DNA from: Stramenopiles sp. TOSAG23-6
Taxonomy: Eukaryota
Reading direction: 5' to 3'
NCBI GenBank assembly: GCA_900128565.1
Contig: LT635919.1
Coordinates: forward strand, 1-55,584
DNA length: 55,584 bases
Every line of letters starts with the position of its first letter. Within the stretch, counting starts at the first letter, position 1. The notes under the pieces were generated by a model. The model saw nothing but the letters and a program-made list of their open reading frames with translations, made no database searches and had not been told where the DNA came from. Of this stretch, positions 1 to 19,214 are shown piece by piece. The position numbers and the translations under genes are program-made.

Positions 1-58
1 TTTTTATAAAAAAAAAATTCGATTTTTTTTTTCGGTAAAAAAAAAAAATAAAACATAC
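1..58 (-). other. Intron of the formin gene (5' part only; AT|GTATGT donor)
   Basis: The minus strand reads CTAT|GTATGTTTTATTTTTT, the same start as intron 439-546, and is truncated by the window edge. Confidence 0.7.
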
Positions 59-694
59 ATAGATGTTTTCGTAACGCAATCCGATCAGCTTGATCTGAAG
101 TTTTGTTTATAAGTTCATTAATGAAACTCATTATACATAGTTGAAATCGCAAACAATTACCAGGCTCAAACGTCTCATCATCGTTTCTATTCAATGATGA
201 CGTGGACGCATCTCGCATAGCAGTTACAAAAGATGCAAATAATGATATTTCATTTCGAGTGATTGACCATCTACGAAGGCCGTCAATTACAAGTAGATAT
301 CCTCGAGAGTCGTGATCATCAGCTTCAAAAAAAGCCACTAATGTGAGAAGCTCCAAAGTATCTTGTGCTAAAAGAGGCTGACTTAAAATATCCAGGGGAA
401 GAGCCATGAATATTCGATCTATGGCACCATCCGTTTCAATGTATTTTGGAAAAATATTTCAAAATTTTCTTTAAAAAAAAAATTTGTTAGGTACAAAATT
501 TCGTACGAAAAAAAAATTTCGAAATTGAAAAAATAATAAAACATACATGACATTATTCATTCCGAAATCATTATTCATTAACGCTTTCATTGCGTTGCAA
601 ATGTGATGTTGGATCATAATGTCGACATCACCTAGAACCTTTGTTATTTCAAGCCTGCGAAGTTGAGCGCAAAGGTCTTCGATTCCACCTGCAA
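59..694 (-). CDS. Formin (diaphanous-type GBD/FH3 region), partial; exons ~547-694 and 59-438, continues beyond the window start
   Basis: Manual translation gives GGIEDLCAQL...ICNAMKALMNNDFGMNNVI|ETDGAIDRIFMAL...ELLTLVAFF...FQLCIMSFINELINKTSDQADRIALRKHL, resembling the formin GBD/FH3 pattern. There is an AG acceptor at 696-695 and GTATGT donors at 546 and 58. Not in the ORF track. Confidence 0.75.
439..546 (-). mobile_element. Non-canonical GT-AT intron, putative introner element (108 nt)
   Basis: CAT|GTATGT...TACGAAATTTTGTACCTAAC...AAAATACAT|TG. Removal restores V-I-E-T-D. Retention gives an in-frame TAA, and the only downstream AG (470-469) gives an in-frame TGA. Similar along its length to intron 44628-44728. 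Confidence 0.75.
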
Positions 695-839
695 CTGAAA
701 AAATATTTAAAATTTTAAATTGTTCAATTGTTATATTGAAGAAAAGTACAGTAGTAATTACACATTTTTAACAATGTTGAGAGTATATGTATCTATTTTT
801 GTTCACATTGTTGTGTGTGTCTCTGGTATTAGAATTAAC

Positions 840-1445
840 ATGAACCCGTCAGTATCACAGCAGCAGCCTGTTACAGAGGTGCCAGGCTTTGTTTCATTTT
901 TATTTCCTTGGTTTAAACGTGTTCAACACCGAATGTATCAACGGAGGATGAGATTCTTAGATAAAAAATCTCATGATCCAGCTGTAAATCCAGACACTGT
1001 TTTAAGTTCAGTTTCAGGAGATTCAAGAGAAGAGTTTCATGTCACTAATAAAAATAATAAAAATAATACAAGTGATAAAACCGAATACAAAAAAGATCAA
1101 ACTGATACCACTGATACTCATGAAATAAAAGACGCTAGTACCAAAAGCAATGGTGTTAGCAACGGAAGCGTCGTCGAAAACGACAGCAATGCTCTAGAAG
1201 AAGAAGTCGATGAAGTAGAAGATGATGATGAAGACTATGATGAAGTAGAAGATGATGATGATGAAGAAGATGGCCAAGGTACACCAATAGAGGTTGCTTA
1301 TGCGCGTTCCAATCAAAAGTCTTTGCAAAAACAAAAAGTAATTACGGATATTGAAAACAAGTGGCGAATTAATTTCGTTTTAGGTTTATTGACAACTTTT
1401 GCAATGGCGATACTGTGTGGTATCATTTGGATTTTAATGTCATAA
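840..1445 (+). CDS. Acidic low-complexity protein with C-terminal transmembrane anchor
   Basis: ORF with a D/E-rich tract and a hydrophobic C-terminal helix. The track start at 720 is TTG, so the ATG at 840 was chosen. Confidence 0.6.
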   Translation: MNPSVSQQQPVTEVPGFVSFLFPWFKRVQHRMYQRRMRFLDKKSHDPAVNPDTVLSSVSGDSREEFHVTNKNNKNNTSDKTEYKKDQTDTTDTHEIKDASTKSNGVSNGSVVENDSNALEEEVDEVEDDDEDYDEVEDDDDEEDGQGTPIEVAYARSNQKSLQKQKVITDIENKWRINFVLGLLTTFAMAILCGIIWILMS

Positions 1446-1927
1446 AATTCTAGTATTTTTATTGCCAGGGTAGAGGAGTTGACCGGGAGTTGAGACAAAT
1501 GAAAAATGTATTCGAACTTATTTTGATTAAAAGATTAAAATCGATCAAATCGATATGTGTCTGTTTCGCCTATCTTGTTCGTTTCATGAAAAATTCTCTA
1601 TTTTGATAAATTTTCTCTCAAATTTAACGAAATTCAATTTATTTACTTCAACCAAATTATATTTTAGTTTACATTTTACTCTTTCTTAGCCTTAAATTCT
1701 TAAATTTCCGTATTTTAAGGCATTTTAATAGCTAGTAGCAGGTTTGTTCAAAGATTTGAAATTTTTCGAAATTTCAAAAATTCAAAATCAAATTTTCAAA
1801 AGTTGTACTTATCTCATTTCTTTTTTGTAGATACGTGTACTACTAATATATATATATCACTTTACATAAGAAAGCAATAGTTGTATACGCAATACATTTT
1901 ATTAATTGGAAGTTATCCTTTTTAACG

Positions 1928-2929
1928 ATGCAGATTCTGTTTTGCATCATAGCTATTGCCTTTTTATTTAAAGTTTCTGCTCTTCAAAGAGGTTCTCTTC
2001 GTCGTCACTACTTGCCAGAATCTGAAAGAGTTCGTTACAATGTCAATCCATATGACACATCAGATTCGATATTTTCGTCATATGAATCCTTGGATCATGA
2101 TGACAATCCAATAGTGAATAAAAAATTGCAACACCTTGTTGATACTGTAGACACTAACAAAAAGAAAATGAATAATAACAGTGAAAATCAACTTGATATG
2201 AACGATACAACCAAGGACAAATTTCTCATAGTCAAAGAAGAGGATATACCCGCAACAAATACCAAAGAACTTCCACAAATTTTCGATGCAACAGTGAAGG
2301 ATAAAGTCAAAAGTGCGAAAATTGCTGCAGCAGAGGCATCTGAACAGATCTCTAATGAAAAAGCATTATATGATGTGACTTCACCATCAAAAACGGGTAA
2401 CTCTAAAGAAGAAGAATCAAAGGTGAATACAAATAGTAAAACTACTAATAAAGTAGTGGAAGATGCTCTTGAATATGGGCGTCATGTAGTTGATGTTCAA
2501 AGAAATATGCGAGCAGAAGCTGCACAAAAAATAGCGAAGTCTCAGTCTCTCTCAAATGTTGATGAATTAAAGACAGAAACGCTATTAAAACAAGGAGATG
2601 GAAGTGAAAACACAGAAGAAGAAGAACCGAATGAAGAAAAAATCAACAAAAAAGAACTCGTGGAAGAAGCAAAACAAGAATCTAAAGAGGAAGAAATTGA
2701 AATGGTGAAAACCAACGAAGAAGATCATCAAAAAGAAGAATTAGAAGAAGAAGAAGCACCACCAACTGAACTGATTATGAAAAAAATTGAGGATGGAGTA
2801 GGCGATGTTATTACAGAAGACATTGTATGGAAATCTCATGTAACTTTTGCAGTTGGTGTAGCCATGATAGTAACATTAGGTACAATGGTAGCGCTTGCTG
2901 TTGTATGGACGATTGTAACAGGTGAGTAA
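1928..2929 (+). CDS. Secretory-pathway acidic protein with signal peptide and C-terminal TM helix
   Basis: 333-aa ORF with N-terminal MQILFCIIAIAFLFKVSA, a Glu-rich middle and a C-terminal hydrophobic helix. Confidence 0.75.
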   Translation: MQILFCIIAIAFLFKVSALQRGSLRRHYLPESERVRYNVNPYDTSDSIFSSYESLDHDDNPIVNKKLQHLVDTVDTNKKKMNNNSENQLDMNDTTKDKFLIVKEEDIPATNTKELPQIFDATVKDKVKSAKIAAAEASEQISNEKALYDVTSPSKTGNSKEEESKVNTNSKTTNKVVEDALEYGRHVVDVQRNMRAEAAQKIAKSQSLSNVDELKTETLLKQGDGSENTEEEEPNEEKINKKELVEEAKQESKEEEIEMVKTNEEDHQKEELEEEEAPPTELIMKKIEDGVGDVITEDIVWKSHVTFAVGVAMIVTLGTMVALAVVWTIVTGE

Positions 2930-3140
2930 ATTATCATTTAGAATCGTTTTATATAAACTAAAAAAAAGTAAAAAAAATTAATTCCATTATTTTTCTAGTA
3001 AAATTTGAAAATGTAGAGGCATTCAGAGGAGGATTCGATAACATCTCACCTGAAAATCAGTCAATTTCTTGACTTCTTGAATTATTATATTATCAATCAA
3101 ACAATCAAAGGCCCAAAAAACATTTTCCCTGTTGTAGTAT

Positions 3141-3995
3141 TTATGAAATTAGACACCCATTATTTTCATTATTTTTTTTTTGATTCTCTATATTTGGTTG
3201 TTGGGCAACATTTTGCATTCTAATTGTTTCCTTTGATTGATTTCTTCGTTGTTGTCGCTGCTTTAATCTTGTTTTTGAAGATTTAGTACGTTTTCGCTCT
3301 TGATGCTCTCGTAATTTCATTTTTTTTACATATTTCGTCTGTTTGGCTGACGACGTGGACCGTCGTCTGTGTCGTCTTTGATGTTGTCGATGTTGTATAC
3401 GTTTTTTTCGTGCTTTCGCTACACAAGCCAAACGCGTATTTTTTGCTACTCGAGCTTCCTTTATAGCAGCTTCCTTGGCTATTCGAATCATTCGAAGTTT
3501 CTTTGCTTCAACCAAACGAGCTCTCTCGGCAGCTATTCGAAGTTTCTTTGCTTCAGCTAAACGAGCTCTCTCGGCAGCTATTCGAAGTTTTTTCGCTTCA
3601 ACTAAACGAGCTCTCTCGGCAGCTTGGGATATTCGAAGGATTTTTGCTTTAGCTAAACGAGCTTTTTCGGTAGCTAATTGTGCTTCCTGTGCGTCATGTA
3701 GTAGTTGCCAGTGAGTTTTAACAAAATGGACCCGTTTCTGAATATCTTTAGCGGGATCCTTACCATCCTTGAGCGGTTGACGAATCTTACCACTTTGGAT
3801 TTGAAATTGAAGCTTGGGAGAGTTCTCCCGACGTCCAACATTTGCGTCTCCTATTTGTTCAATTTGTTCGTCCCATAATTTCGCAAGGTGCCTAAGTCGC
3901 TTAATTCGTATGTTGTTGTCTGTAACTACTCTGGTTGCTCTAGTTGCTTGAGATACATACAATAGTGTAAAAGCAAGTAATCCACGTCGATTCAT
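3141..3995 (-). CDS. Basic helical-repeat protein with putative signal peptide and CaaX-like end (CLIS)
   Basis: 284-aa ORF with repeated RIAAERARL(V/A)EAKKL and an R/K/Q-rich tail. Confidence 0.6.
   Translation of the reverse strand: MNRRGLLAFTLLYVSQATRATRVVTDNNIRIKRLRHLAKLWDEQIEQIGDANVGRRENSPKLQFQIQSGKIRQPLKDGKDPAKDIQKRVHFVKTHWQLLHDAQEAQLATEKARLAKAKILRISQAAERARLVEAKKLRIAAERARLAEAKKLRIAAERARLVEAKKLRMIRIAKEAAIKEARVAKNTRLACVAKARKKRIQHRQHQRRHRRRSTSSAKQTKYVKKMKLREHQERKRTKSSKTRLKQRQQRRNQSKETIRMQNVAQQPNIENQKKNNENNGCLIS
3478..3665 (-). repeat. Coding tandem repeat, 45-nt unit, about 3-4 copies
   Basis: gctattcgaagtttctttgcttca..taaacgagctctctcggca is repeated head to tail. Confidence 0.9.
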
Positions 3996-4420
3996 TGTGT
4001 AATAAATTTCCCGCGGGTCATCTGGACAAGAGAGTTTTTTTCGCTTTTCCTGATGTTGTTCGATGTTTGGCCATCATCATCATCANGCATCATCATAAAT
4101 TAATTTTTTCAAAAATAAAATCAAAACAGGTTTGTGTGCATGGCGGATCCAGATCGATGCCATGCCGGATTTGTGTCTGTGTGCACCACCATGCTGCTCT
4201 CGGCGGTACATTTTATCCTCTCGTCTGCTGTGTAGAAGAACGGATCTTGGAAAAAAAACTAATAGCAATAATTAATTATCACTGGAGTTAATAATTAATG
4301 ATATTGCTTTAAAGATGTGTTTGGGTTATNAAAATTTTTCAACTCTTTCAGATTTTGATTGCTGTAAATATTTTGTAAATGTTTTCCACGGAAAGCAGGT
4401 GATTTCTGCACTATACCTTG

Positions 4421-7400
4421 ATGAGCTTAGACGAAGAAGTCTATGGCAAGCCCCAACAAAGGGTTAAGAATGTGGCTATATCAAATGTTTGTGATAATTC
4501 ACCTACTGAAGTTACAAGAATGTTCCCAGGGGCATTTGTTGAGTATGTTTGTTGTCTGAAGATATTAGATGCTACTAACTTACCAGCTTTGGACAAGTGG
4601 TCTGGTGCCGCCGACCCTTATTGCCGGGTTTTCCTTCAAAACCCTGAGTTAGTATCGACGTCTATAAGTAGCGTAGGAATACAGAAAATAAAGCAAGTAA
4701 AGAGGACGTCAAAGAAACAAAAAACAGTTGATCCAAATTGGGCAGACGAAAATGTTATGAAGTTCATTCTCCGAAGTGACAATGGTATTCAAGAAACTCT
4801 TTGTATTGAAGTGTGGGACTTTGATAGTGGCTCAAAAGATGAGTTAATAGGATTTGCAAAAATAGAAATAGCGTCAATAATGGCACCACTTTTAGCTAGA
4901 AGAGCAGCTATAGTGCAGGTAGATGAAGATGATAAGTTGATATCAGACAAAATAGTTGGAAACGTTGCTTTTATGAGTCAAAACCCTGAGCCTATGACTA
5001 TTACTTTATCTGGTGGTCAGGTTGATAAATTTAATAGTAAGAGTTGTATTCGCTTTGTTTTGGGATTCGAAAGTTATTTGGTTACACTAGCTGCGTATTC
5101 ACAGCTAAGATTGTCATCAGTCAGTCCTATTGCTGCACAGGCTCGTGGTTTTCTCGTTACTCGTGATTGTGAAGGTAATAAATATGTCCAATATGTATTA
5201 GATGTTACTTTGGAGTATGAAATAGAAAAAGGTAATGGTATTGATACATCAAAATCTTCTTATCTCTCGTCAACAGTTAGTGATGGTGAACGAATAATGA
5301 GTACTCAAGGAATTAAAGTGAAAACACAAGTAGCCCGTCGAATGAAAGAATTTCGAAAATTAGAAGATTGCGTACAGCGTGATTTTAGACACACATTGAA
5401 ACACGTTAAAGATCGTCCTGAATTCCCACATGGGTCTTTGCGAGAATATTTTAAAAATGGAAAGACTGGCACAAATGAATCTTTAGTATTGAAACGTCAG
5501 AAAAGACTGAATTTGTGGTTACAGGCACTTATCAATGTACCACCTATAGCTAATAGCTGTGCAATGAAAACATTTCTTTTTGAACCAGTGCTCACACAGA
5601 ATTGGACTAAGAAACTTGCCGAATCTGTATTTGATGAAAAAAACAGGGTACGGCATCATACAGTGGATAGGTCAAATTCTGAATCTAATAATAGTGATAA
5701 CTTTGATGACTCTTTATCAAAGAATGTAATGAATACATCTGAAAGTATTAGAGATGTGTCAAGTTCATCAGTGGAAGAAGGGACGCATATACAAAATGAT
5801 TCTGATAATTCTGAAACATGTTTCAACAACGGCAGTCGAATGCTTCGAGTAAGTCAGCAAACATCTACACAAAAGAAATCGAGAGGTTTTCAAGGTCAAT
5901 GTAATAGGGAGAAGTCTGGCAGTTCATTTGAAATGAAAGTGATTGATACCACAACGCGTGATTCGACTTCCTTGAAGTCCTCGCAAGTACCACAACCACG
6001 AATTAGTTCAATATCACCTGGTCCTGGGTATACAAGAAGAAAACCACGTTCCACTGTAAGTATTCCTCAAGGTTGGTTACCAGTGCAAAGTGATGATCAA
6101 ATTGGACCAACTGAAAATATAGACAATAGAAACCATACGATTCATGGTGGTAGCCACCATGAAGAATCAACTCATATCTCAAATAATAATAATAATAATG
6201 AAAATAAGGGAAAACGTCAAAGTATCCATAATGTACGTATCCAGCGTGGTAATAAAAACAAAGTTACTTTTAAGGAAAATGTAGTCGTTCAACAAGGAGA
6301 GCATCCTCATTCATCATGTGAAACATTTGTTGAAAATACACTATTGCGATGCATGACATATAGTAAAAAACAACCGATTGATGTACGTCCACGCAGATTT
6401 GCACTAATGGCTGCATCTAGTAAACAAAGTGCAACTGCAGTATCGGCTTCAATTAGTGTACGACAAGGTCATGAATTTGCGAGCATGTATTCACCAGATC
6501 CGAATGAGTTTAAGGCATTTTGGATGATGAGAAAACTCGGTGCCGCAGTAGCGCCAGGTGATGGTGGATATTTAACGCCTGCGTTGTTCCTTCCTTCCCA
6601 AGTTTGGAGTCGTGTAGGAGTCAAATTAGAATCCTTACCCTTAAAACAAAAAGCATTCCAAGAACTCAGTCGACATTTAGGGCACATGCATTCTGTACAA
6701 ATAGGATTTGGAACGAAGACAAAAACACAAGCAGGAGATTCTTTAGCAAATTTGAAACGATTTAAAGTTGGTTTAAAGCATATTTGTAAAATGCTTCCAG
6801 ATATGCAATCAACATTATCAAAACATTGCCCATATATACCTGAAGCAAAAGTAAATCGATCTTGGATTCGAGAATTACGACATAAAGGAGCCCGTGTCCG
6901 TGAAAGGGCTAATTTGAAACTCCAACGATATTTTAAAGATGATATTCGTGTACCAGATCTTGGAAGTTATCGTCGTGTTTTGTGTGATATATGTGAAGGA
7001 ATCATTTTAATTAATGATATATTCTTGGCATTTGTTGCTGCAGAGGCCGCTTCCATTGGTACATCAAAAAGATCTTCAAGTAGACGTCGTGCAGTGTCTG
7101 TTGTCCGCAACTCTAAAGCTTTAAGTGATGATATGAAAGACGTTGTTGCCCATGTTAGTAAACTTGCAGATTTTGTGAAGGTTGTTGTTTGGGCTATAGT
7201 TCTGAGAGACTTAAAAGTTTTAGTGGAACATGATATCCTACATACACGACGTGTTTTCGCAGCACCACCTCCAAGTTTTAGAAATACACAGAGGCAAGAG
7301 CAACAAGAACGTGAAGAAAGAAGGGAGAGACATCGTGAATGGGAAAAGGCGAAGAAACGTACTAAAGAAAAACGACGTATTTCATTGAATAGAAAGAAAA

Positions 7401-7501
7401 AAATAATAGATGAAACAGGTTCAAAGGTATTTCGTCTAAGTCGTCTTCAAATCCCTGAACATGTTATTAAAAGCGAGAATATTGATCTAGACTGGCGCTG
7501 A
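4421..7501 (+). CDS. C2 and PX domain-containing protein
   Basis: C2 motifs (ILDATNLPALD..GAADPYC, IEVWDFDSGSKDELIG) and PX-like motifs (VARRMKEFRKL, RQKRLNLWLQAL). Confidence 0.85.
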   Translation: MSLDEEVYGKPQQRVKNVAISNVCDNSPTEVTRMFPGAFVEYVCCLKILDATNLPALDKWSGAADPYCRVFLQNPELVSTSISSVGIQKIKQVKRTSKKQKTVDPNWADENVMKFILRSDNGIQETLCIEVWDFDSGSKDELIGFAKIEIASIMAPLLARRAAIVQVDEDDKLISDKIVGNVAFMSQNPEPMTITLSGGQVDKFNSKSCIRFVLGFESYLVTLAAYSQLRLSSVSPIAAQARGFLVTRDCEGNKYVQYVLDVTLEYEIEKGNGIDTSKSSYLSSTVSDGERIMSTQGIKVKTQVARRMKEFRKLEDCVQRDFRHTLKHVKDRPEFPHGSLREYFKNGKTGTNESLVLKRQKRLNLWLQALINVPPIANSCAMKTFLFEPVLTQNWTKKLAESVFDEKNRVRHHTVDRSNSESNNSDNFDDSLSKNVMNTSESIRDVSSSSVEEGTHIQNDSDNSETCFNNGSRMLRVSQQTSTQKKSRGFQGQCNREKSGSSFEMKVIDTTTRDSTSLKSSQVPQPRISSISPGPGYTRRKPRSTVSIPQGWLPVQSDDQIGPTENIDNRNHTIHGGSHHEESTHISNNNNNNENKGKRQSIHNVRIQRGNKNKVTFKENVVVQQGEHPHSSCETFVENTLLRCMTYSKKQPIDVRPRRFALMAASSKQSATAVSASISVRQGHEFASMYSPDPNEFKAFWMMRKLGAAVAPGDGGYLTPALFLPSQVWSRVGVKLESLPLKQKAFQELSRHLGHMHSVQIGFGTKTKTQAGDSLANLKRFKVGLKHICKMLPDMQSTLSKHCPYIPEAKVNRSWIRELRHKGARVRERANLKLQRYFKDDIRVPDLGSYRRVLCDICEGIILINDIFLAFVAAEAASIGTSKRSSSRRRAVSVVRNSKALSDDMKDVVAHVSKLADFVKVVVWAIVLRDLKVLVEHDILHTRRVFAAPPPSFRNTQRQEQQEREERRERHREWEKAKKRTKEKRRISLNRKKKIIDETGSKVFRLSRLQIPEHVIKSENIDLDWR

Positions 7502-7643
7502 ATGTATAATAATGTAATTTATCAAGTGATGTCCAACAATCACTGTATAACAAATAATATATCAAGTGATTTGATTTTACTATAGAATAGCCCAAGAAAA
7601 AGAATTTATACTAAAAAAATATTTATTTCCTAATCTTTTGTTT

Positions 7644-9887
7644 TTAATCAACTTCAACAATTTCTTCAAGCTTACCACTAACCCATCCTAACTCATCTAC
7701 TACACTAACTACTTCTTTCTGCAACATAGCTCTCATTTTTATTAGTTTGCCACCAGTACCTCGAGTTAGCGCTGCCATAAATAATGCACGAACCGAGAAA
7801 AACAAACGAAAGCCAATCTCCGATACTTGAATACCTATTAATGCAAGAAACGGAGAAAAGAAAAAATAAATCACCGCATACACTTCTGCTAGATAATACC
7901 AACATAACACAGTATATATAATATGTTGCATTGGTATAAACACCATTCCTACAATTACTTTCCATGTAGCAACAACATCTCGAGCTTCTATTTTAACTCT
8001 TGACTTTTTTAATGCCTTGCGTTGTTGCCATCCAGAAACTACTCTAGTAAGTATAATACATGGACCAGCAATTACTAAACCCAATGGAATCATTAAACAC
8101 CAAATAATAAGCATCGGGACACGTACGGCCAACCTTTGATATACCTTACCCACACTCCAAAGAGTTCTGTCACCTTTAGAATTGTTAATCATTTGTTGGA
8201 CTGAAGCTATTTTGTGATCTGGTATACCATAATTCTTCTTCAATAAATTATATTGTTCAATATGTTTACGCAATAATAATACCCGAGGATGTGACTTGAG
8301 TGAAGAATACCCAGAGGCTATTGCATGTCCTAGATTAAACTTAGCCACAAGGGATGCATGGTCGACTTCAGCATGTCTTCCAATATCTTTTCTCAATGAA
8401 TGTATACTATTTTCAGCAAGATCAAACCCAGCATGTGCAACACCCATCAAAGAAAGTGATGGATTGGAGAGACTTCGCTTAATTCCATTCAAACTAGACA
8501 CTCTTCTACGTAATCCTACATCTGTAGGACGTCTTACTGCTCTATATTTGTTTCTGTTTGAAATCATGGAAAACTCATTATGTGATTGATGTGATTTCAT
8601 CGTACTTGTCATTCTAACAGGAGCTCCTTTACTTGTAGATGTATCATTTACCATTCCCTGTGTGCACCCTTCAGCATACATTCTTCGAACACCACGGAAA
8701 AATTCTAAAGTTTCTGCATCAGGTGCTTGAAAAGTGACCATAGAAAGACCTAGTTTTATACGGTCAAGTAGTTCTGTACACGCAACACGTTTCAAAGCAC
8801 CACCAGCGATATAATTATCAACAAGATGAGGTGATACAATAATTGGATCACCATATTCAACAAACACAGAACCATGAAATCGATGCCCTTTATAGTAGTT
8901 AAGTCCAACAGGAATAATTCGAAGTGGGAGGTTTTTATTTCTAGCAAGTGCGCCTAGTGCCATAAGGGATACACCTGCTTTGAGTGGCAGTAATCGAGAT
9001 TGATCATGTGAACCACCTTCAGGGAAAACACCAACTGCACCTCCTGCATCAAGGCAATCAAACACCGAAGTATACATATCTTGATTATTTACTCTTGGAA
9101 TCATCTTATAAGAAGAGGGTGGGACTGATAAAGTTTCAAAGCCTTTTTCATATAACCCGCCACTTTTAGTACCTATTTTATTTAACTCGCTACTTTTAGC
9201 ACCTAATGACACGTTCTTTTTATGTTTACTGGTAGGAAGACCATGAGGTAGCTCTAATGGACTCTGTAGAATTAGATGGGAATTACTCACCACTTTCAGA
9301 ACGCGACTTGATTTTTTTGAATATGGTTCATCAGTCAATAATATTGTATATCCAGATTTAAATAAACTAAGAAATCGAGTTTCCTTATCACCAAGCACAT
9401 GCAAAAACAAGGACTCCTTTTCGTCAGAAATACGGCCTATAGTCACACGACCAGCACCAGTCACTGACAGGTCTTGGGGACGCTCAACACTTATAGGATT
9501 TAAACCACTCATAAGATGTCCTATATATGGCTTGCGCAAAGAACTAGCGGCAGCAATGAAACGAATATCTCTTCTTTTTAGTTTAGTAGTGGCGACAACA
9601 GGATCTATAAACTGGTTAGCATGAGGGGCACAAACAAGGATTAGTGGACCTTTTTCTGGCACTTTAAATTCACCATGGGATACAAGATCACGAAAAAATA
9701 TCTCCGCTATAAAAGCAAGAAGGCCCATCACTACATTACCCCACTCAATATTCCAATATGCCCACCAAGTAAAAAAACTACCGTTTATTGACTCTGCAAT
9801 CAACCAATGGACACCCGCAGTATGTAGGACGCACGAAAACCCCAATCCAACCCATACCACCCATAGTCCATCTTTTTTAAATCTCAT
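7644..9887 (-). CDS. Glycerol-3-phosphate/DHAP acyltransferase (Sct1/Gpt2-like)
   Basis: PHANQFIDP, FPEGGSHD and IIPVGLNY acyltransferase motifs, plus C-terminal TM helices with ARDVVATWK. Confidence 0.9.
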   Translation of the reverse strand: MRFKKDGLWVVWVGLGFSCVLHTAGVHWLIAESINGSFFTWWAYWNIEWGNVVMGLLAFIAEIFFRDLVSHGEFKVPEKGPLILVCAPHANQFIDPVVATTKLKRRDIRFIAAASSLRKPYIGHLMSGLNPISVERPQDLSVTGAGRVTIGRISDEKESLFLHVLGDKETRFLSLFKSGYTILLTDEPYSKKSSRVLKVVSNSHLILQSPLELPHGLPTSKHKKNVSLGAKSSELNKIGTKSGGLYEKGFETLSVPPSSYKMIPRVNNQDMYTSVFDCLDAGGAVGVFPEGGSHDQSRLLPLKAGVSLMALGALARNKNLPLRIIPVGLNYYKGHRFHGSVFVEYGDPIIVSPHLVDNYIAGGALKRVACTELLDRIKLGLSMVTFQAPDAETLEFFRGVRRMYAEGCTQGMVNDTSTSKGAPVRMTSTMKSHQSHNEFSMISNRNKYRAVRRPTDVGLRRRVSSLNGIKRSLSNPSLSLMGVAHAGFDLAENSIHSLRKDIGRHAEVDHASLVAKFNLGHAIASGYSSLKSHPRVLLLRKHIEQYNLLKKNYGIPDHKIASVQQMINNSKGDRTLWSVGKVYQRLAVRVPMLIIWCLMIPLGLVIAGPCIILTRVVSGWQQRKALKKSRVKIEARDVVATWKVIVGMVFIPMQHIIYTVLCWYYLAEVYAVIYFFFSPFLALIGIQVSEIGFRLFFSVRALFMAALTRGTGGKLIKMRAMLQKEVVSVVDELGWVSGKLEEIVEVD

Positions 9888-10083
9888 TCTGATAATACAC
9901 TCAACAATAAACTTTTGTCTTTAATTGAAGATAAGATATGGATACAAAGGTGTTAAGCTTTGGAAAATTTAATAGTTTCCTTTTTCAACCAGCATGCTGC
10001 ATACCAGAGCCAGATGCTGGGCACGCGCTGGGCACGAAGAAGCGAGAGAGAGGAGGACAGCGAGAGATTTCAAAAAAAAAAAA

Positions 10084-10100
10084 CTAACCCTAACCCTAAC
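10084..10100 (-). promoter_or_regulatory. Interstitial telomeric motif (telo-box-like)
   Basis: ctaaccctaaccctaac lies about 200 nt upstream of the GPAT start. Confidence 0.5.
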
Positions 10101-10328
10101 TAACGCTAATAGAATTCTAATCTCAAAATTCAATCTAAATTCTAAAAATTAGATATACTATATAATTTATATTGTCGTGCATTTTATGTATTGTAATACT
10201 ATAAAATATTTATGAATAAACAGCAAAGAAGTATTATATACATTTTACTTTTATTCGTAGAATTTTAAAAGTTTTTAGTAACATTTTGGAAATTGAGCGT
10301 TGACTTGTCTGCTCACTTAATTATTTTA

Positions 10329-12668
10329 TTATACCACAGCCAACATAACATCAGGTACTGGGTTAAGAAATTTTGAAGCAACACTTGCAACCAGAAGAAA
10401 CAAAGCAGCAATAAAACAACAAAAACTAATTCCCCATGTATCAACAGTAACTTCATATAACACACCACTAAGCATTGTGCCTATAAGGCGACCACCAGCA
10501 TTAGCCATATAATAAAATCCAACATTTTTGGCAACTCTATTCTTTGGAGAGAAAGCAACAACAAGATAAGAATGGATTGCAGATATCACAGCCATTATTA
10601 TAGCAAATACTAGAAACATAATTGGTGTAACGATTGACAAGTTTTTAACCATATCTGAGTAATTTGACTTATTGGTAATACTCGTGTTTGTATCTTTCAA
10701 TTTTTGCCATTCTAAAATAGATCCAACATCATTCTTATGAATACCTAAATACACGGCACCAATTCCAGCAGAAACTAAACCGAGTATAGCAGTCCACGGA
10801 AGAACATGCACAGACTGTGGTGGAAAACATCCCAAAGGTTTTAATAAAAGATATCCACAAAACACTTGTAATTTACCATATACTATTATGTATCCACCCA
10901 TAAATGCAGAAACAAGAAAATCATCCCAGTTCAAAACTTCTTTCAAAAAAATTGGTGCAGCAACTTCAAACCAAACATCTCTAGATGCAAATAGAAAAAA
11001 CCTTGCGACAGAAAGTACTAATAAATCTCTAGGTACAGTTATAATATCTCGCAATGTTACTACTCGTTTTGTAGTATCTTTGCCTAATTGTGGGTCTGTG
11101 TATAGAAAAACAAAAGGTAATGGTATCAGAGGTAACAAACCAATGGATATACACGAGATCATGTAACTATATTTTCCATTACCAATTAATACAACACCTC
11201 CAAGAAAATGACCAACTCCTTTTAGAGAATTTTTGGCACCAGTTAAATATGCAACCATATTGAACAATTTATCATCAGAACCCGCCTTTTCTTTTTCATT
11301 GACAAGTTTTGTTACACTTTTACCACTAATTTTTAACAAATCTTTGGCAACGCCAGCAAAAGCCTGTATAAAGGTAATGTATATAGTTGTACTCCAACGA
11401 GTAGCGTTATTAGAATAATCATTTCCAAAGATATCGCTTATTGGCGATACAAGAAAAAATACAAGAGATTGAAGGAAAAGTCCTATTAAGCATGTCCATC
11501 TTAATCCAACGCGTGATGCAATATATCCACCAAATAGATTAGTAATAATACCCATCAACTCATACAGCATAAACATGGTAGCAATTTCTATAGCATCAAA
11601 ACCAAGTTCAGCAGCATGTAGTAATATGATTGTACGCAATGCCCCATCAGTTAAAGTTAATGTGCAGTACGAAAAAGCTATAGTCATAAAGTTGACCTTA
11701 TTTGCTTTCACTTTTTCTTCATTTATTAATCCTTTTTTTGCATCAAATACATCTTCTACTTCTTTTGTTTTTTCTAGCCCGTCTGGTTCATATATTGGAA
11801 TCTTACAGCATTGTAGAAGGGACGCTGTACTCGATGTACTATGAATATTTGACTTTTTTTCTATAACAATTTCCGATTGATCTGAAAGAAGAGAATCTAT
11901 TTCTCTAATTTTTGCATATTTCCATCCAGATTTCCCTCCAATTGTGACCATTTTACCTAAGCCATCATTTCCTTTCTCAAACTCATATGGAAGTTGTAAT
12001 GCCTCAGGACTTTTTACTGTGCGGTGAATAACAATAGTACAAAATCCTGGTTTATCAAACATTTCACAAACTCCTGCAGTATAACCACAACTTTTCCAAA
12101 ACTTTTCAAGGCGTGAACAAAATTGATTAAATGGTGTCGAATTGTCTACACCGAGTTGTGCAGCTAATGGTACATGACGTATTACTGCTAAACCACCTTG
12201 TGGGTCTAAAAAGGAATAAACAGCCTGAAGTGTTCCAATTGGGTCAACTAAATGATAAAACGTCGCAGAAGACCAAATCAGAGAATATGTTCTCTTTCTA
12301 GGTAAAAATAGGTGTAATTCATCAATATTAGCAATTATGTACGAATCATCGGGTATTTCACAATTCTGTGGTCGATGATCTTTTGCTGAGACACCAAATA
12401 ACTTCTCGAAAGGCATACGAAACTCTTCATGCACTTTACATAAAAGTTTTCCAGATGCAGTGCCAAGATCTATAAAATTCCGTGTCCCAAAGCAAGCTAT
12501 GATATCATAAAGTACGAAGTATCTTCCACGTTTATCTATTGGGTATCGCGCCTTCAGATCTTCCCCATGGTTAACCCATGTTTCCTTACGGTCTTGAAGA
12601 ATCTCAAACTTTTGCCGAGAAATTTCACTGACACTTGTGGGACGCGATAAATAAAGATTTTCTACCAT
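10329..12668 (-). CDS. arsJ: Fusion of a class I SAM-methyltransferase-like domain and an ArsJ-family organoarsenical MFS exporter
   Basis: The C-terminal ~450 aa carry ArsJ signatures (TLTDGALR..., LTGAKNSLKGVGHFLGG, ARFFLFASRDVWF, GFYYMANAGGRLIGTMLSG). The N-terminus has IDLGTASG (motif I), SSATFYHL.DP and LDPQGG. Confidence 0.85.
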   Translation of the reverse strand: MVENLYLSRPTSVSEISRQKFEILQDRKETWVNHGEDLKARYPIDKRGRYFVLYDIIACFGTRNFIDLGTASGKLLCKVHEEFRMPFEKLFGVSAKDHRPQNCEIPDDSYIIANIDELHLFLPRKRTYSLIWSSATFYHLVDPIGTLQAVYSFLDPQGGLAVIRHVPLAAQLGVDNSTPFNQFCSRLEKFWKSCGYTAGVCEMFDKPGFCTIVIHRTVKSPEALQLPYEFEKGNDGLGKMVTIGGKSGWKYAKIREIDSLLSDQSEIVIEKKSNIHSTSSTASLLQCCKIPIYEPDGLEKTKEVEDVFDAKKGLINEEKVKANKVNFMTIAFSYCTLTLTDGALRTIILLHAAELGFDAIEIATMFMLYELMGIITNLFGGYIASRVGLRWTCLIGLFLQSLVFFLVSPISDIFGNDYSNNATRWSTTIYITFIQAFAGVAKDLLKISGKSVTKLVNEKEKAGSDDKLFNMVAYLTGAKNSLKGVGHFLGGVVLIGNGKYSYMISCISIGLLPLIPLPFVFLYTDPQLGKDTTKRVVTLRDIITVPRDLLVLSVARFFLFASRDVWFEVAAPIFLKEVLNWDDFLVSAFMGGYIIVYGKLQVFCGYLLLKPLGCFPPQSVHVLPWTAILGLVSAGIGAVYLGIHKNDVGSILEWQKLKDTNTSITNKSNYSDMVKNLSIVTPIMFLVFAIIMAVISAIHSYLVVAFSPKNRVAKNVGFYYMANAGGRLIGTMLSGVLYEVTVDTWGISFCCFIAALFLLVASVASKFLNPVPDVMLAVV

Positions 12669-12876
12669 AGTTTCTGGGTCTAAAACAAATACAATTAGTA
12701 CAGCTTGTCGTTCGTAATAAATACTATGGCGTAATTATTCAAAGAAATTGAAGTAAAGCATAATTTTAATTATTTTGTTCCACTTGCTTGTTTCAGCACG
12801 CAGAGTACGCAGTTTGCGTTTGGTCAGAGCAAGGGTCAGAGACATCAATTGTGAATCTTGCTCCTGTACGTATTAT

Positions 12877-12888
12877 TTAGGGTTAGGG
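12877..12888 (+). promoter_or_regulatory. Telo-box-like TTAGGGTTAGGG
   Basis: Lies in the divergent intergenic region between the starts at 12668 and 13073. Confidence 0.45.
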
Positions 12889-12976
12889 CAATAATAAATA
12901 GAAAAAAATATTCAGTGCGACAATTAATCGCCCAACAACTGCTACTACTACTACTCTGGACACACAGGTACTGTAC

Positions 12977-13049
12977 TACCCTTTGAAAAAGTTACAGCTA
13001 CAATAAAAATATAGAAGAGGTACCCTTTGAAAAAGTTAGAGCTACAATA
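12977..13049 (+). repeat. 29-nt direct repeat (2 copies)
   Basis: taccctttgaaaaagtta(c/g)agctacaata at 12977 and 13021. Confidence 0.85.
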
Positions 13050-13072
13050 TTTGTCTATCCCACATTAATCTA

Positions 13073-13774
13073 ATGTCTTTTAATGATAGTATCAAATCAA
13101 AAATATTGAAAATTGTCAAGACACTGTCACATAGTAAGTTACCTATAGATATTTTACGAGCATTTGAATTGCAATCAAAGTTACTCACAGCGAGGCAGAA
13201 GTCAATTGATAGGCTAAATGCTGACCCTTGGGGAGTTGGTATTTGTGATAATGATGGAAAATTCTATCCTCATATACAGCGTATTGTTGATAATTTTTCT
13301 GTTATAGCGTACGAAGAGTGTTTTGAACAGGACCTAGCTTATATTAGAGCAAAATTGATATTTGAAGGTGGCTCTTGTATCCGCACAAAATATCGTCGTG
13401 AAAAAATGCTTAACTCTGATGTAAAAGGGGAAGAGTTAGTTGAATATTTTATAGATTTTGGTAAAACGCAGAGTGAAATCAGGGAACAAGTTCTGAGGTT
13501 TCAATACCGTTGGATCCCTGGAGAAGAAATGTTCACTAGTGGAGAAAATGTAGATAATGAAAATATTAACTTATTCTTTGATGATGAAGTTATTCAAATA
13601 TTTAGTAAGTTAGCATGTCTAGATATGGACATCAGTGATACTTTATTTTTTTTGATGACAATTCCTTTCCATGAAGCAGAAACGGAAGTGGATGTGTTGC
13701 TCGCAAAACTAATTTTTGGTGAACAAAATGAAGAAGAACAAAATGAAGAAGAACAAAATGAAGAAGACGATTAA
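13073..13774 (+). CDS. Hypothetical protein with acidic EQNEE x3 tail
   Basis: 233-aa ATG-initiated ORF; no family recognised. Confidence 0.7.
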   Translation: MSFNDSIKSKILKIVKTLSHSKLPIDILRAFELQSKLLTARQKSIDRLNADPWGVGICDNDGKFYPHIQRIVDNFSVIAYEECFEQDLAYIRAKLIFEGGSCIRTKYRREKMLNSDVKGEELVEYFIDFGKTQSEIREQVLRFQYRWIPGEEMFTSGENVDNENINLFFDDEVIQIFSKLACLDMDISDTLFFLMTIPFHEAETEVDVLLAKLIFGEQNEEEQNEEEQNEEDD

Positions 13775-13878
13775 ACAAAAATCCAAATGCAATAGAACTT
13801 ACATAATGAAGAATAACATGATAACGTAAGAAGGGTTATTTTTTTAATGGAATGATAAATCTATTTATATCTCACTAT

Positions 13879-16800
13879 TTAACACCAAACTTCTAATTTT
13901 TCTTCATTTTCGGAACTTGATATATTTTCCAGACACAACTCAACATTTAAATTATCAGCTAAAACTTCTTCATCAACTAATTCACATTCACTACAAAATG
14001 AATGTTCTAGTAACTCTGATGCAAGAGCGCGGTCTTCGGGTTTCATACAAAAACAAAGGCCAAGAAATTCGTGCACAGTAGATGATACAGAGTCTGGTAT
14101 TGGTGGTGGTTTATTTGCTGTTGCAACATGAAATAATGCAGAAAGGTTGTTTTCAAAGGATGGCCATGGATGCTTTGCAGTAGCCATTTCAAGAACGGTT
14201 GCTCCGAGACTCCATATATCTGCTTTCCTACCGTGCCCAGTCTGGCGTATTACTTCAGGTGCCATCCATGGTATTGATCCTTTTAATGTCTTGAGGCTTT
14301 CATCTAATCTATTTGTTTTCATTCCGGCCATTTGCTTCGAGCATCCAAAATCAGCAAGTTTTGCCACGCCATTATCACTGACTAATATATTAGAACCTTT
14401 AATGTCACGATGAATAATTTTACGGTCGTGGAGATATGAAATACCTTGTGTGATGTGTCGAGTATATCTTCTTATAATACAGTCTGGAAATGCACCAAAC
14501 TCTGATAACATTCTGCTCAGAGAACCTCCTGGAACATATTCAAGGAATATATGAAGACATGTGCCTCGACGTTCAGTTCCTAGATACTGTACAATATTTG
14601 GATGTTTCAAACCTTTTAATAAAGATATCTCTCTCTCTATTTCCAATGCTTGATCGTCACTTGCATTATCTAATTGCATTTGTTTTACTGCAAATAATGA
14701 ACCGGATACTTCGTTTAGAGCTTTATAAACACAGCCAAAAGAACCACTTCCAATTAATTCCCCCATACGCCAACTTTCAGGACCATCTGAAAAAGATATG
14801 TGCATCAATCTATCACCAGATTTAGCCCTGCCACGAGATTTGCTGGATATATTCATTTTACTTTCACTATTACTTTCAGCTGTCTCATGTCCGAGTTTCA
14901 TTCTTCGCACATGATCAGAGTCTACTTTGTCGTACGTATTACTTCTACTACGGCTACTTTCCACATCAAAATCGTGGCTGTAATTTGATACAGCAACGTT
15001 ATCGACTTTTACGGAATCTAAAAGACTTTGGCGTAAATCTAAATGCAACGAAGGTATATCACTTTTAGATTCGCTAGTCATATTTTTGTGTTCATTTGTA
15101 GCTGTTTGTGTTTTTGTGTCAAGTTTTGTATTTAATTGTGTATACGGATCAATGTCAATTAATTCTAAATCACTGTCTCTGCGGCTACTTTTCTGAAATG
15201 AAATAGATAAACTATTATCTGAAAACGAAAGATCGCTTGTATCTAAAGATCGAAAACGTGGTCTCCGCGGGGATCGGCTTGCTGCAGCAGCAGCTGCAAC
15301 TGCCACACCTGTAATTTGTAAATTATTTCCTTTTTTAGAAATATGAAAAGGGGATTGGGATCGTCTTGGATTTTTTGTATTATTTGACACTGAACTGGAT
15401 GTAAACTTATTCATAGTTAGTGCTGGTGATATTGAAGACCTTAAGTTGTTGCCACGGAATATATTATTACGAAGATTATTCTGAGAATTACCAAGACTTA
15501 AGCTCAAACTGTGGGTACTATGACCAAGGCTAGCAACAATTTCATCTTCGATACTTTTTCTTGATATTTCTAAATCTACATCAGTATAATCAATAACTTC
15601 AGAATTCTTCATTCGAATAGCAGACGCTCGTGATGCTTGATTGCTTCTTGGTGTTAATTTTCCGATCATATTAGCAAGTATTCCTCCACTTCTTGAACCA
15701 TTAAACTCACTTATATCTTCTGAAGTTTTGAGTATCTCATCACGTAAGTCATTTAGATTTTGTTCATGAGGTTTCCTTGTTGTGTGTGACCCATTTACCA
15801 AATTATTTTTTGTATTTTTCACATGTGCTACAGTAATATGAGTAAGAATATCCTTTTCACTGCTTTCACCACTTGATGAAATTTCACTGAGACGAAATCG
15901 TTTTGTCCCTCCGCTGCTTCGAGCACGGGGTGCAGAAGCACGAGGTGATGTGCTTGGATATTCAAACCCATCATTATAATTTACGTTATTCATCGTGGAA
16001 GAAGTGGTACTCTTGGTTCGCTTTGTTTCATCTACACCACTAATATTTCGATTTTGTTTCCGTTTAACATTTTTCGGTTTTTCTATTTTGAGTGTTACAT
16101 CATTTTTTTTGGTATTTTGTGACTCCTCTGAATTTCGTCTAACATTTTGCCATAATGGAAATTTATACAATGTTTTCGTCTTATTATTATTTATTATTCT
16201 ATTATTTATTCTTGCACTTGTCGAAGATATTTTAGCTTGTTTTTTCTCATCTATAGACATATTTCTAGTATGTCGTTTTTTTTTGCTACGAGAAAAACCC
16301 TTGTGAATAGAATTATGCGAATTATTCGAAGATGTTGACGTTTTTGTATCTGTTGAACTTGTTCTTAATTTTAAAGAATTTGGTTTATCATTTAATGGTG
16401 ATAATTCTTTTCGTACAACAAGATTTTTTGTTGTAAAATTATCAATTTTGTCACTCCGTATTTTTTGTTCATCAACATAAACTTTTCTGTGGATACGCTC
16501 CATAGACCGAGGTAAACTAGTAGTATCCTCATCAGTTACGTTATCACAAGTATCTTCAATATTTACTTTAATTTCGCGCATTCCCTGTCGCTCTTTAGAA
16601 CGGTCTTTAACTTGGGTATTTTGCCTTCTATGATTACGATAATATCTTTCTTCACTATGCTTCACTTCTAGATCAAACGAGAATCTATTATTGTTAGTCA
16701 TTTTCTCAGTTTTTTCCCACTTTCTGACTCTTTCTCTGGCTCTTTCCCGTTGAACGTTGAGAGGCGGGGTCCTAAGTTTGTCTACTGAATGTGGTGAACC

Positions 16801-16998: not shown

Positions 16999-17232
16999 CG
17001 CTATTTATTCCGCATCATTAATCAATACATTCTTCAAGGTAATGCCACGGGACATATGTAGCCCTAATAATATAACGAATGACTGTTTTTTAAACTTTTT
17101 TTTCAGTTACATTCGGACATTTTGGAATTATTATATATATCTCATTTCGATTTGGAAATACCAGTCAAGTCACAAACACGAAATGCAAGCCGGCAAGATT
17201 GAATTATTTTCATAAAAAACTTAACTTTATGA

Positions 17233-17366
17233 TTAAATTTTAAGTAATAATATAATATATAATGTAACAAATTTACCGATCGGCACAATATTTAGTACCA
17301 ACCTTTTCGCCTTTAAAGCGTTTCCTACCCACAATATCTCGACTAGAAGATTTTCGCTTTTTTTTT

Positions 17367-17404
<38 letters not shown>

Positions 17405-18991
17405 CTTTTTTTTCTTTTTTTTTTGCAATATTCTGCTTTCTTTTTGGCAAGATACATGGCACTTTTTTTATCTAATAAATCCAATTTCATGTCAAAGTTG
17501 TCTCTAGTATTCAACTTCTCTGCAATTGCAGCTAAATCTGGTCTCTCTTTTTTCATCTTAATTAGTAGTTTTCTCGCCATTTTTTTTCTACCACTTCGAG
17601 TTTCTTTCCAAACAAATTCAAAATTTTGTTCATTACAATAGTTTTCAGTAATAGCAACAGAATCCTCTAAATTCAAAACTGCGTGCCACCAACCTCCAGG
17701 CACATAAACTGTCTCTCCAGGATATTGAATGAACTCATACATTACCATATTTTCTCTTCTAATATTATCTCTACGAATTTTAGGGAGTATTTCATTGAAG
17801 TATGATATAGCTTCATCGTCATCATTTTTCCCAATATATTTTTCACCCTTGGCAATTTCTTCTGGAGTACCTGGACTGAATACGACCCATCTAAATTATA
17901 TACAATATGTAAAAATAAGTAAACATATGAGTATTTAATATAATGTAAAAACTATATATTAAAAAATCTAACTGTAATTTTGAAATGTGTCATCGCATGG
18001 AGGCTTGAAGATGGGTTCAAATGACAGCCTATAAAGGCGTACCAACAAGTACTATGTGAATGACTCAAAGTAATCTAGTCACGAAAACAACCAAGTGTAT
18101 TGCACATGGTCAGCGCGTACCCGCAAGGACTTTGAAGAAAAAACTTCTTCGTAGTAATCTTAACAAAAGGATGTGGGAAATCCCTGGGCTTGCAACAAAT
18201 GTGACACAAATATTCAATATAGTAAAAGAAGAATAAAACACAAAAAGAAAATTGACCTACCTCTTTGCACCAGAAATTATACTATTCCAAGCACTTGTTC
18301 CTAGAGGATCTATATGTACTGTCGTGCCTGACCGTTTTGGTCCTAATAAAAACCATCTATATGGAGGACGGTTATCCTCGTCTACCATTTCAAAAAGCGT
18401 ATTTCTAAAATATACTGGGGGCGAATATGAATTCAAAATGTCTTTTGCGACTTTATCGTCACCAAATGTTCCATCAAATATATAAAGAGGAGAGTCATCT
18501 ATTTGGTCTGGGTGTTTCATGTATTCTATAAAATGTTTTGCTTTCACGCGTATAGCATAACCATCGTCGTCTTCGCCGCATTTAAGCTTACATTCGCCAT
18601 ACTTTTCCAGTATATTGGGTAAGGTCCAATCTTTGTTAGCCGGCCAGTTATCAGTTAAACCAGAAATAACGACTGGTTTCGCAGGTCTTTCAAATTCGTC
18701 AATAAATCTCTGTCGAGACATGTCACTAGCATGAATCCGCATAATGTAATCCACAGGACGATCACATGGCGTCTTACCTAAAGTTCTTTTAGCAAACCCA
18801 AGTTTATGCCAAGCTGCAGCAGTTTTGAGCTCTGTCCTATGTTTTAGTTTGGCATCGAGCATTACTCCACGCCATTTATCAGAGCTATGACCCCCTGATA
18901 ATGCAACTGATGCATTTCGCTTTGAAGCAAATTTATTGCGTTGTCTCTCAGCCGCAAGTTCAGCTCGAATATCGGCTCCTAATGAACCCAT
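17233..18991 (-). CDS. JMJD6: JmjC arginine demethylase/lysyl hydroxylase JMJD6; exons 18261-18991 and ~17233-17890
   Basis: RPPYRWFLLGPKRSGTTVHIDPLGTSAWN...GAKR|WVVF...QYPGETVYVPGGWWHAVLNL. Canonical GT-AG intron at 17891-18260. The exact stop is uncertain because of a homopolymer run. Confidence 0.93.
17986..18208. ncRNA. Candidate structured intronic RNA (unassigned)
   Basis: GC-richer block inside an AT-rich intron, closed by TGTGTCA/TGACACA and containing several internal hairpins. Confidence 0.35.
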
Positions 18992-19214
18992 ACACGTTAG
19001 AAGTGAATGTCTTTCGACAAGTGAGAGACCACTAAGTAATTAACCAGTAAATCGCTTGCAATGTCACATGTGAACTGAATTCATGTCGCACACGCAAACA
19101 AACCTGCTTGCCTTGGCCTAAAAAAAAGAGTTCAGCTTGAAATGAATTCTTTCTTACATCACACACACAAGTACTTACTTTCGTACTTGTGAGAGGCTTT
19201 ATTCCTTCAACAAG

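Follow-up and report, generated by a model that had tools for sequence, protein, structure and literature searches.

A candidate introner family with a non-AG 3' end in the formin and eEFSec genes of a marine stramenopile

Among the proposed origins of new introns, introners have the best support, and the known families nearly always produce introns with GT/GC-AG borders. This article concerns a 108-nucleotide (nt) insert lacking an AG at its 3' end, here designated copy A, which interrupts a formin gene on the minus strand of contig LT635919.1 (assembly GCA_900128565.1, Stramenopiles sp. TOSAG23-6). The window throughout is the whole stretch of DNA analyzed, 55,584 nt in length. With confidence only a little above even, copy A is regarded as a short, AT-rich, foldback introner resembling a miniature inverted-repeat transposable element (MITE), which brings along both a 5' splice site and a branch site and whose removal uses a non-AG 3' end arising from target duplication. 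A preliminary description of the same DNA had proposed an AG-less intron at this place, an interpretation that is plausible and partly supported by the findings below.

Two groups of non-canonical introns come closest to this element. In Fritillaria borealis and F. pellucida, a YAY triplet (Y, pyrimidine) precedes the 5' splice site and recurs as the last three bases of the intron (PMC13326754). Between 34 and 44% of Fritillaria introns have a 3' AT, terminal inverted repeats and target-site duplications mark their MITE origin, and removal is by a U2-type spliceosome (PMC13326754, PMC11282704). These transposon-derived introns, with direct repeats at their borders, hairpins of inverted repeats and non-AG ends, are spliced (PMC13326754). 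The introners of Amoebophrya (Syndiniales) are repeated and spliced, and they carry direct repeats of 3-5 nt over the exon-intron borders and inverted repeats of 8-20 nt at their ends, which form a hairpin joining the exon borders (PMC7789003). Both sets of non-canonical introns are held to be transposon-derived (PMC11282704).

Canonical introners, known from Micromonas pusilla, Aureococcus anophagefferens and others, are short, non-autonomous, DNA-transposon-like elements lying in the sense orientation within genes. Their insertion creates a 3-nt target duplication, so that the element supplies one of the two splice sites and the duplication is where the second is found (PMC11282704). A large introner survey accepted only AG or AC as 3' ends unless RNA data confirmed others, and would consequently miss a family such as the present one (PMC12130899). 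The nonconventional introns of euglenids have non-GT-AG borders, paired ends that join the exons, and repeats resembling target-site duplications. They are described as having no 5' GT, branch motif or pyrimidine tract, and as pairing CAG with CTG at positions +4 to +6 and -8 to -6 (PMC11282704). A literature search, with supplementary intron tables outside its scope, found, among the papers it listed, none pairing the word 'introner' with stramenopiles or with the marine stramenopile (MAST) lineages. Term searches in the accessible text of two MAST-3 papers (PMC5778133, bioRxiv 10.64898/2026.04.17.719054) found no unusual introns, and the word 'intron' did not occur in the search listing of the Incisomonas paper.

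The insert and its formin host

Copy A occupies positions 546 to 439 of the minus strand when its borders are read as GT..AT. With a caret marking a border or an empty site, the minus strand reads GTCAT^GTATGT (546-541) ... GTACGAAATTTTGTACCTAAC ... AAAATACAT^TGAA, or, with wider flanks, AATAATGTCAT^GTATGTTTTATT...CGTACGAAATTTTGTACCTAAC...CCAAAATACAT^TGAAACGG, which reproduces the borders and the length given in the preliminary description. The flanks share one reading frame, and the split codon AT^T encodes Ile. If the insert is retained, translation meets an in-frame TAA at 473-471, as had been noted before, and a TGA at 461-459. The sole AG within copy A, at 470-469, was likewise correctly said to lead to an in-frame stop, since its use gives ATA AAA TTT TGA. 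The first AG past copy A, at 420-419 in exon 2, would take out 128 nt and shift the frame. With both the internal and the first exonic AG checked, no AG can yield a productive formin mRNA.

As judged from its sequence, the host gene is a diaphanous-type formin whose protein needs the exact loss of the 108 nt, because of its domain matches and the gap-free alignment of the joined exons to three relatives. The exon before copy A (698-547, minus strand) holds part of the Drf_GBD domain and ends with the split codon AT^. Its match to Pfam Drf_GBD covers positions 108-154 (E 1.3e-5), and in the PDB it hits nine different mDia1 sequences, the best at E 0.0063. The exon after copy A (438-59, minus strand) contains the end of the GBD and the start of FH3, with a weak match to Pfam Drf_FH3 (E 0.0073). 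Both Pfam scores fall under the gathering cut-off because both exons are fragments. A word-based protein search with exon 2 gave no match. A full HMMER search with it returned eight proteins at E <= 0.001. A Pfam domain scan took in P0001, P0002, P0005 and P0007, and the other four, multi-stretch matches, were left out. P0001 is without a formin domain. The remaining three align over residues 2-124, each with Drf_GBD and Drf_FH3 above cut-off, and when the exons are joined by coordinates without the 108 nt, the alignment is gap-free across the junction in all three. Drf_GBD is thus followed by Drf_FH3, as in formins of this type, and the FH2 part lies beyond the window. These alignments bear out both the earlier naming of the gene as a formin and the earlier joining of its exons.

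Copy A has the GT at the 5' border, the branch motif and the downstream pyrimidine run of a U2-type GT-AG intron. The 5' splice-site motif GTATGT (546-541, minus strand; GTACGT in the sibling copy introduced below) starts at the first base of the element. The candidate branch site, GTACCTAAC, lies at 494-486 of the same strand with CTAAC at 490-486. Matches to GTACCTAAC number two in the window against 0.11 expected, and in copy A a T10 run follows directly, the branch point itself being predicted from the motif. Despite indels, the last base of CTAAC is intron position 61 in copies A and B alike, at a distance of 48 nt from the 3' end in copy A and 41 nt in copy B. What departs from the GT-AG pattern is the productive 3' border, where the frame-restoring end reads ...ATACAT rather than AG. 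The final three bases of the element (CAT, 441-439, minus strand) repeat the exonic CAT just before the 5' site (549-547, minus strand), a YAY triplet. Most simply, the CAT at the 3' border is a target-site duplication of the exonic CAT. Because CAT both precedes the insert and ends it, the same mRNA results from four border registers, namely GT..AT, TG..CA, AT..AC and CA..TA.

The formin gene contains a further intervening sequence, cut by the window end (58..1, minus strand), which reads TAT^GTATGTTTTATT followed by T- and A-runs. After the 5' site it forms a T12-ACCG-A10 palindrome, and an end at a TAT...TAT direct repeat at position 6 would give 53 nt. Its first 12 bases are common with copy A; though it also has T/A-runs in common with the family, it was rejected as a member because it is not significant with a profile from the two copies. 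Upstream of exon 1, at about 699-768 of the minus strand, the sequence ATGT^GTAATT...TTTTTTCAG^TT would, if rightly read, hold a first exon of 4 nt, the ATG and a single further base, and a GT-AG intron of 66 nt, in which case the formin would be without the N-terminal part of the GBD. A divergent plus-strand gene lies about 80 nt from this stretch (ATG near 841).

A second copy in eEFSec and the wider family

A sibling of copy A, copy B, was recognized by blastn, reading frames and alignment. It is 101 nt long (44628-44728, plus strand), reads CAT^GTACGT ... ATACAT^TG, and lies between VDH and CF of eEFSec. The blastn match of copy A covers 44658-44698 of the plus strand (92.7% identity over 41 nt, E 2e-11). 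Copy B parts two open reading frames (ORFs) in different frames, the upstream one encoding the GTPase domain of eEFSec and the downstream one domains 2-4, and taking out the 101 nt joins them. The exon before copy B aligns to human eEFSec residue 240, with 12 further residues to its end (about 250), and the exon after it begins at residue 251. All 14 distant metagenome eEFSec loci are uninterrupted across (V/I)DH^CF; with 58% identity at best and no close relative among them, they were used only to show empty sites. One (L010) has stops just upstream and another (L013) diverges after seven residues. A protein search for eEFSec found no close relative among proteins of 705-2010 residues, a range outside which the expected length of about 640 falls. 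Copy B has no AG past its branch motif, and the first exonic AG leads to TGA after five codons. According to the reading frames, exact removal is therefore both needed and sufficient in two unrelated genes, formin and eEFSec. The eEFSec gene is complete (43911-45937, plus strand), with the GTPase domain, domain 2, the eukaryotic SelB domain III and a C-terminal RIFT domain, which implies that this MAST-3-like flagellate (see below) uses selenocysteine.

The preliminary description had announced a second family member in an unrelated gene on the opposite strand, and the global alignment of the two copies upholds this, with 82 of 112 columns identical. Differences affect 15 of 97 aligned positions, in addition to 15 gap columns. 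The similarity begins and ends exactly at the frame-restoring borders. Preserved in both copies are an initial GTAYGT, AATTTCGA, nine consecutive T, a second T-run after the branch block, and the terminal 21 bases, AAATATTTTTnnAnAATACAT. In the 27-nt block around GTACCTAAC, the copies differ at a single place, G against A. The splicing signals, GTAYGT and the CTAAC block, are the best-conserved parts of the family. When the window was searched with a profile made from both copies, only these two were retrieved (E 1e-23 each; next best E 0.37). All three inserts (A, B and the partial 58..1) lie in the sense orientation within coding sequence, a small number. As in introner families, similar copies reside in unrelated genes, here formin and eEFSec, and the core of the element recurs in hundreds of seawater contigs.

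CAT (or AT) is repeated at both borders of both copies, and both empty sites read TCAT^TG, as previously reported. The target preference suggested on that basis is less secure than the sites themselves, for with two copies and identical flanks a target motif is inseparable from target-site duplication or from the element's own ends.

Inverted repeats extend over the whole of copy A. A search for them identified terminal arms at 439..462 and 525..548 (24 nt, 71% complementary), the 5'-side arm including the last two exon bases, AT. The arms reach the very ends of the element and are terminal inverted repeats, as expected of an introner. At the 3' end of the element, the hexamer ATACAT is perfectly complementary to the AT^GTAT of the 5' junction. 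An inner foldback (456..525), found among the inverted repeats and by RNAfold, has arms at 456-485 and 496-525 (30 nt, 73% complementary) and presents the branch motif in a 10-nt loop (486-495). Copy B has an inner stem of 18 nt (89%) around the same loop, and its terminal pairing amounts to only 5 bp (ATGTA with TACAT). In both copies, RNAfold pairs the upstream T-run with the downstream A-rich stretch, places the branch motif at the apex and leaves a 17-nt single-stranded 3' tail. Minimum free energies are -16.6 kcal/mol for copy A (z -2.72) and -18.1 kcal/mol for copy B (z -3.71), and 2 of 200 and 1 of 200 shuffles, respectively, fold as well. The lone AG of copy A (470-469, minus strand), 19 nt past the candidate branch A, falls inside the predicted stem. 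When copy A is folded with its flanks, the closing ATACAT pairs with AT^GTAT (intron UGUAU with AUACA), exon UCA pairs with exon UGA, and the two junctions lie opposite one another; the prediction for copy B shows no such end pairing. The hairpin of GTACGAAA with TTTTGTAC envisaged in the preliminary description can form in copy A. In copy B, however, an A replaces the first G without a compensating change and the closing pair is lost, and in both copies RNAfold prefers the other fold, with its T-run/A-rich stem and the branch motif in the loop.

The RNA data consist solely of seawater metatranscriptomes, all in the form of contigs. Five runs contain parts of the stretch (shares 0.06-0.23), and four of them, from two studies, were compared over positions 1-20000. 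Contigs with 0-3 differences are spread across the compared stretch, and the organism or a near-identical strain was therefore present in the runs. Between 104 and 892 contigs match per run. Mean word depth in the bin 1-667 was 3425, 3396, 174 and 5453 in the four runs, whereas none of the 29 bins past 667 exceeded 7.15. At position 517 it reached about 10,300, 10,100, 124 and 9,800, and at position 534 about 1,870, 2,080, 9 and 370, in the same order. Loose contig ends cluster at 473-482 and 516-519. These limits correspond to a conserved family core (518-473, minus strand) composed of a T-run, CGTACGAAATTTTGTACCTAAC and a second T-run, delimited from the two copies and contig depth and matched by hundreds of metatranscriptome contigs. 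Its extreme depth indicates that a core of 45 nt is common to very many transcribed or co-purified loci. An exact 20-mer of the core had no match in either metagenome contigs or viral contigs.

Because the repeat swamps the bin 1-667 in these all-contig runs, cover of the formin exons is not judgeable there. No 547/438 joint is listed in the four runs, and since no listed piece covers the formin exons, this is uninformative either way. Eleven joints in three runs link 59-64 to 435-483, that is, the family 3' end ...AAAATACAT to the family 5' end GTATGTTTTATT, with 0-6 nt between. They are heterogeneous, have short sides (18-26 nt) and derive from other family members, and they are compatible both with insertion in tandem at the terminal CAT and with excised RNAs in circular form.

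Splicing and its alternatives

From this anatomy we infer that the elements are removed from RNA, by the spliceosome, in the GT..AT register. The canonical 5' site would be read by U1 and U6 and the branch site by U2, so that the first step would be ordinary. In the second step, the RNA would be cut after ...ATACAT, about 17 nt past the hairpin base, the one internal AG would be hidden by the hairpin, and the last six bases would be able to pair with AT^GTAT at the 5' junction. Loss of the element with one CAT would restore the original codons. A short element so numerous in a mostly coding genome could, moreover, hardly spread unless it were harmless in genes.

Several observations weigh against this reading. 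Frame restoration is by itself no proof of splicing, because removing any fresh transposon insertion restores the frame. Only two full copies are available, and target duplication, target preference and fold conservation all rest on this number. Copy B has a terminal pairing of only 5 bp, and in it the GTACGAAA hairpin loses a pair without compensation. In copy A, the AG 19 nt after the branch A stands at a normal distance, and its use by a conventional spliceosome would be anticipated if the predicted stem did not really form. The spliceosome of this genome does use AG. An ordinary GT...AG intron of 370 nt (GTAGGT...TTTAG; 18260..17891, minus strand) joins two ORFs with the halves of one JmjC/cupin domain, so AG 3' sites are in use and the AG-less family would constitute a special class. 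The core is also plentiful in poly(A)-selected libraries, which retention or DNA carry-over would explain as well as pre-mRNA or stable excised introns. Finally, a first-base G with a last-base U is not a pair known from yeast genetics to support the second step. Confidence in the introner reading is set no higher because none of the supporting points replaces a spliced read.

A more specific version of this reading, offered tentatively and on balance doubted, holds that two modes of 3'-site choice operate side by side in a free-living marine stramenopile. AG introns would coexist with a family of mobile introns, possibly numbering thousands, in which RNA structure rather than AG determines the 3' cut, at a fixed 17 nt past the hairpin that displays the branch site, with the last six bases pairing with the 5' junction. 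If so, the element would be a self-contained, portable intron needing only a CAT from its target, and a stable or circular excised form may explain its great abundance in ocean metatranscriptomes.

The strongest competing explanation, although an unlikely one, is that these are insertions from a MITE burst that are not spliced out but kept in the mRNA or spliced at a wrong AG, leaving formin and eEFSec non-functional or decaying, or knocked out only in the individual or strain sampled. It would account for the foldback, inverted ends and short direct repeat, which are MITE features, as well as for the missing AG end, for a frame restored by construction, and for a core whose abundance in RNA-derived contigs is what retention would produce. 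The lack of a listed spliced contig agrees with it, within the limits on exon cover given above. The host genes, however, keep long intact frames and strong similarity to relatives on both sides of the inserts, and the formin would have to bear two such inserts within 500 nt. The two copies cannot both be fresh copies of one master because of their 15 differences in 97 positions and 15 gap columns. In addition, a transposon needs neither an exact GTAYGT at its first base nor a CTAAC at constant distance, yet these are the best-conserved features of the family, and all three inserts are sense. The case against dead insertions, built on fixed-position splice signals, uniform orientation, intact host genes, diverged copies and high copy number, is indirect.

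Excision from RNA without the spliceosome appears much less probable. Here the paired foldback ends would align the exon ends for some other machinery to cut and ligate, perhaps releasing a full-length circle. The facing junctions in the fold of copy A with its flanks (UCA with UGA, UGUAU with AUACA) are suited to such a process, and euglenid introns are described as circular once excised (PMC11282704). Joints of family 3' to 5' ends within 0-6 nt in three runs could reflect circles, and tandem copies would give the same joints. Against this reading, the joints are heterogeneous, have short sides of 18-26 nt, come from other members and fit tandem insertion at the terminal CAT. End pairing is not predicted in copy B, and the spliceosomal signals, GTATGT and CTAAC with its T-run, would be left unexplained. 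We also know of no such machinery in stramenopiles.

About as improbable is an AT-AC intron of the U2 or U12 type, in which the same excision is read in another register, GTC^ATGTATGT ... AATAC^ATTG. The CAT repeat permits this register and the mRNA would be the same. An intron with A as its first base and C as its last is, furthermore, known to be spliceable. AC is among the 3' ends admitted in introner surveys (PMC12130899). The branch motif, however, lies 41-48 nt from the end, and the 5' site is GTATGTTT. U12 introns have a (A/G)TATCCTT 5' site and a branch site resembling TCCTTAAC about 10-20 nt from the 3' end, and the inserts match this generally known consensus neither in their 5' site nor in their branch distance. 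The GT..AT register is favored over AT..AC because the latter would put GTATGT at +3 to +8, where it would no longer be in register for U1 and U6 as these are understood from yeast and mammalian work. Programmed removal at the DNA level, with an expressed genome free of the element as for the internal eliminated sequences of ciliates, would suit a short, AT-rich, precisely excisable element with direct repeats and inverted ends at its borders, but is extremely improbable given borders of CAT or AT rather than TA, a core abundant in RNA-derived contigs of two studies including poly(A) libraries, splice-like signals left unexplained, and no programmed elimination known to us in stramenopiles.

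The host genome and known intron systems

The window has a G+C content of 36% and closely packed long ORFs, and its gene products include flagellar and selenocysteine-machinery proteins. Its Utp21 ORF is 90% identical to a coding sequence source-labelled as a MAST-3-type stramenopile single-cell assembly; with a further protist protein the identity is 63%, and with oomycetes about 40%. Because of these identities, the host looks, by sequence comparison, like a marine stramenopile of the MAST-3 type. A tunicate origin, raised by the likeness to Fritillaria, is rejected on the same Utp21 identities. Rfam and tRNA scans of the window gave no match, and no small nuclear RNA gene lies within it.

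Besides the JmjC intron, reading frames alone point to a candidate intron at about 37562-37443 (minus strand; GTAAAT...CTAAG, phase 2) that would connect a TPR-bearing ORF to an LRR ORF. The C-terminal coding part of the JmjC gene holds, at about 17345-17440 (minus strand), a tract of some 60 A with few G that encodes poly-lysine. Oligo(dT) capture of RNA is possible at this run, and likewise at the A9-A10 runs inside the intron family. An oxidoreductase ORF has only bacterial look-alikes in a protein atlas search. Two adjacent plus-strand ORFs (711-1445 and 1847-2929), alike in their acidic low-complexity body and C-terminal hydrophobic anchor and without Pfam match, may be a tandem pair of tail-anchored proteins. 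The spacer that separates two minus-strand genes contains a short telomere-like stretch, CTAACCCTAACCCTAAC (about 10084-10105, plus strand). N runs at 53678-53802 (125) and 55146-55314 (169), together with eight single N, mark a draft assembly, and the last ORF (54963-55583, minus strand) is without Pfam match.

Fritillaria and Amoebophrya, the exceptions among introner-bearing lineages, combine a wholesale change at both intron ends with a change in the splicing machinery. If spliced, the present family would isolate one variable, as its 5' and branch sites are canonical, AG is used elsewhere in the genome and only the 3' end is CAT. How strictly the second catalytic step needs AG, and what can replace it, would then be testable. 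An AG requirement in gene finders will lead to broken or truncated models of every gene bearing a copy, in the 55.6-kb window formin and eEFSec. Surveys restricted to AG or AC are blind to such families, so that estimates of intron gain in uncultured marine protists may be too low.

In contrast to canonical introners, which give rise to GT/GC-AG introns with the AG co-opted from the duplication (PMC11282704), no AG arises in the present family because the putatively duplicated triplet is CAT. Euglenid nonconventional introns differ in that the signals they are described as lacking are present here, and positions +4 to +6 read TGT. One of the four registers reads AT...AC, as in U12- or U2-type AT-AC introns; by the generally known consensus, a 5' site of the ATATCC type is absent and the branch motif is too far away. 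The likeness to Amoebophrya extends to direct-repeat borders, inverted ends, a hairpin between the exon borders and a marine protist host. There, however, no dinucleotide pattern is reported to prevail and U1 small nuclear RNA was not found, whereas here GTAYGT and CTAAC are kept and the 3' end is constantly ATACAT (PMC7789003). The YAY pattern of Fritillaria recurs as CAT and CAT in copies A and B and as TAT before the third 5' site. Yet Fritillaria is a larvacean tunicate, and the present host is a stramenopile that also has a GT...AG intron. In Fritillaria, 95% of introns are non-canonical and the 5' end is mostly AG; here it is GT, with textbook 5' and branch sites, and only the 3' end deviates. 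The change in Fritillaria goes with duplicated U2AF subunits (PMC13326754); in the present organism the U2AF genes lie outside the window. Relative to both Fritillaria and Amoebophrya, what differs here is a deviation confined to the 3' end and a stramenopile host.

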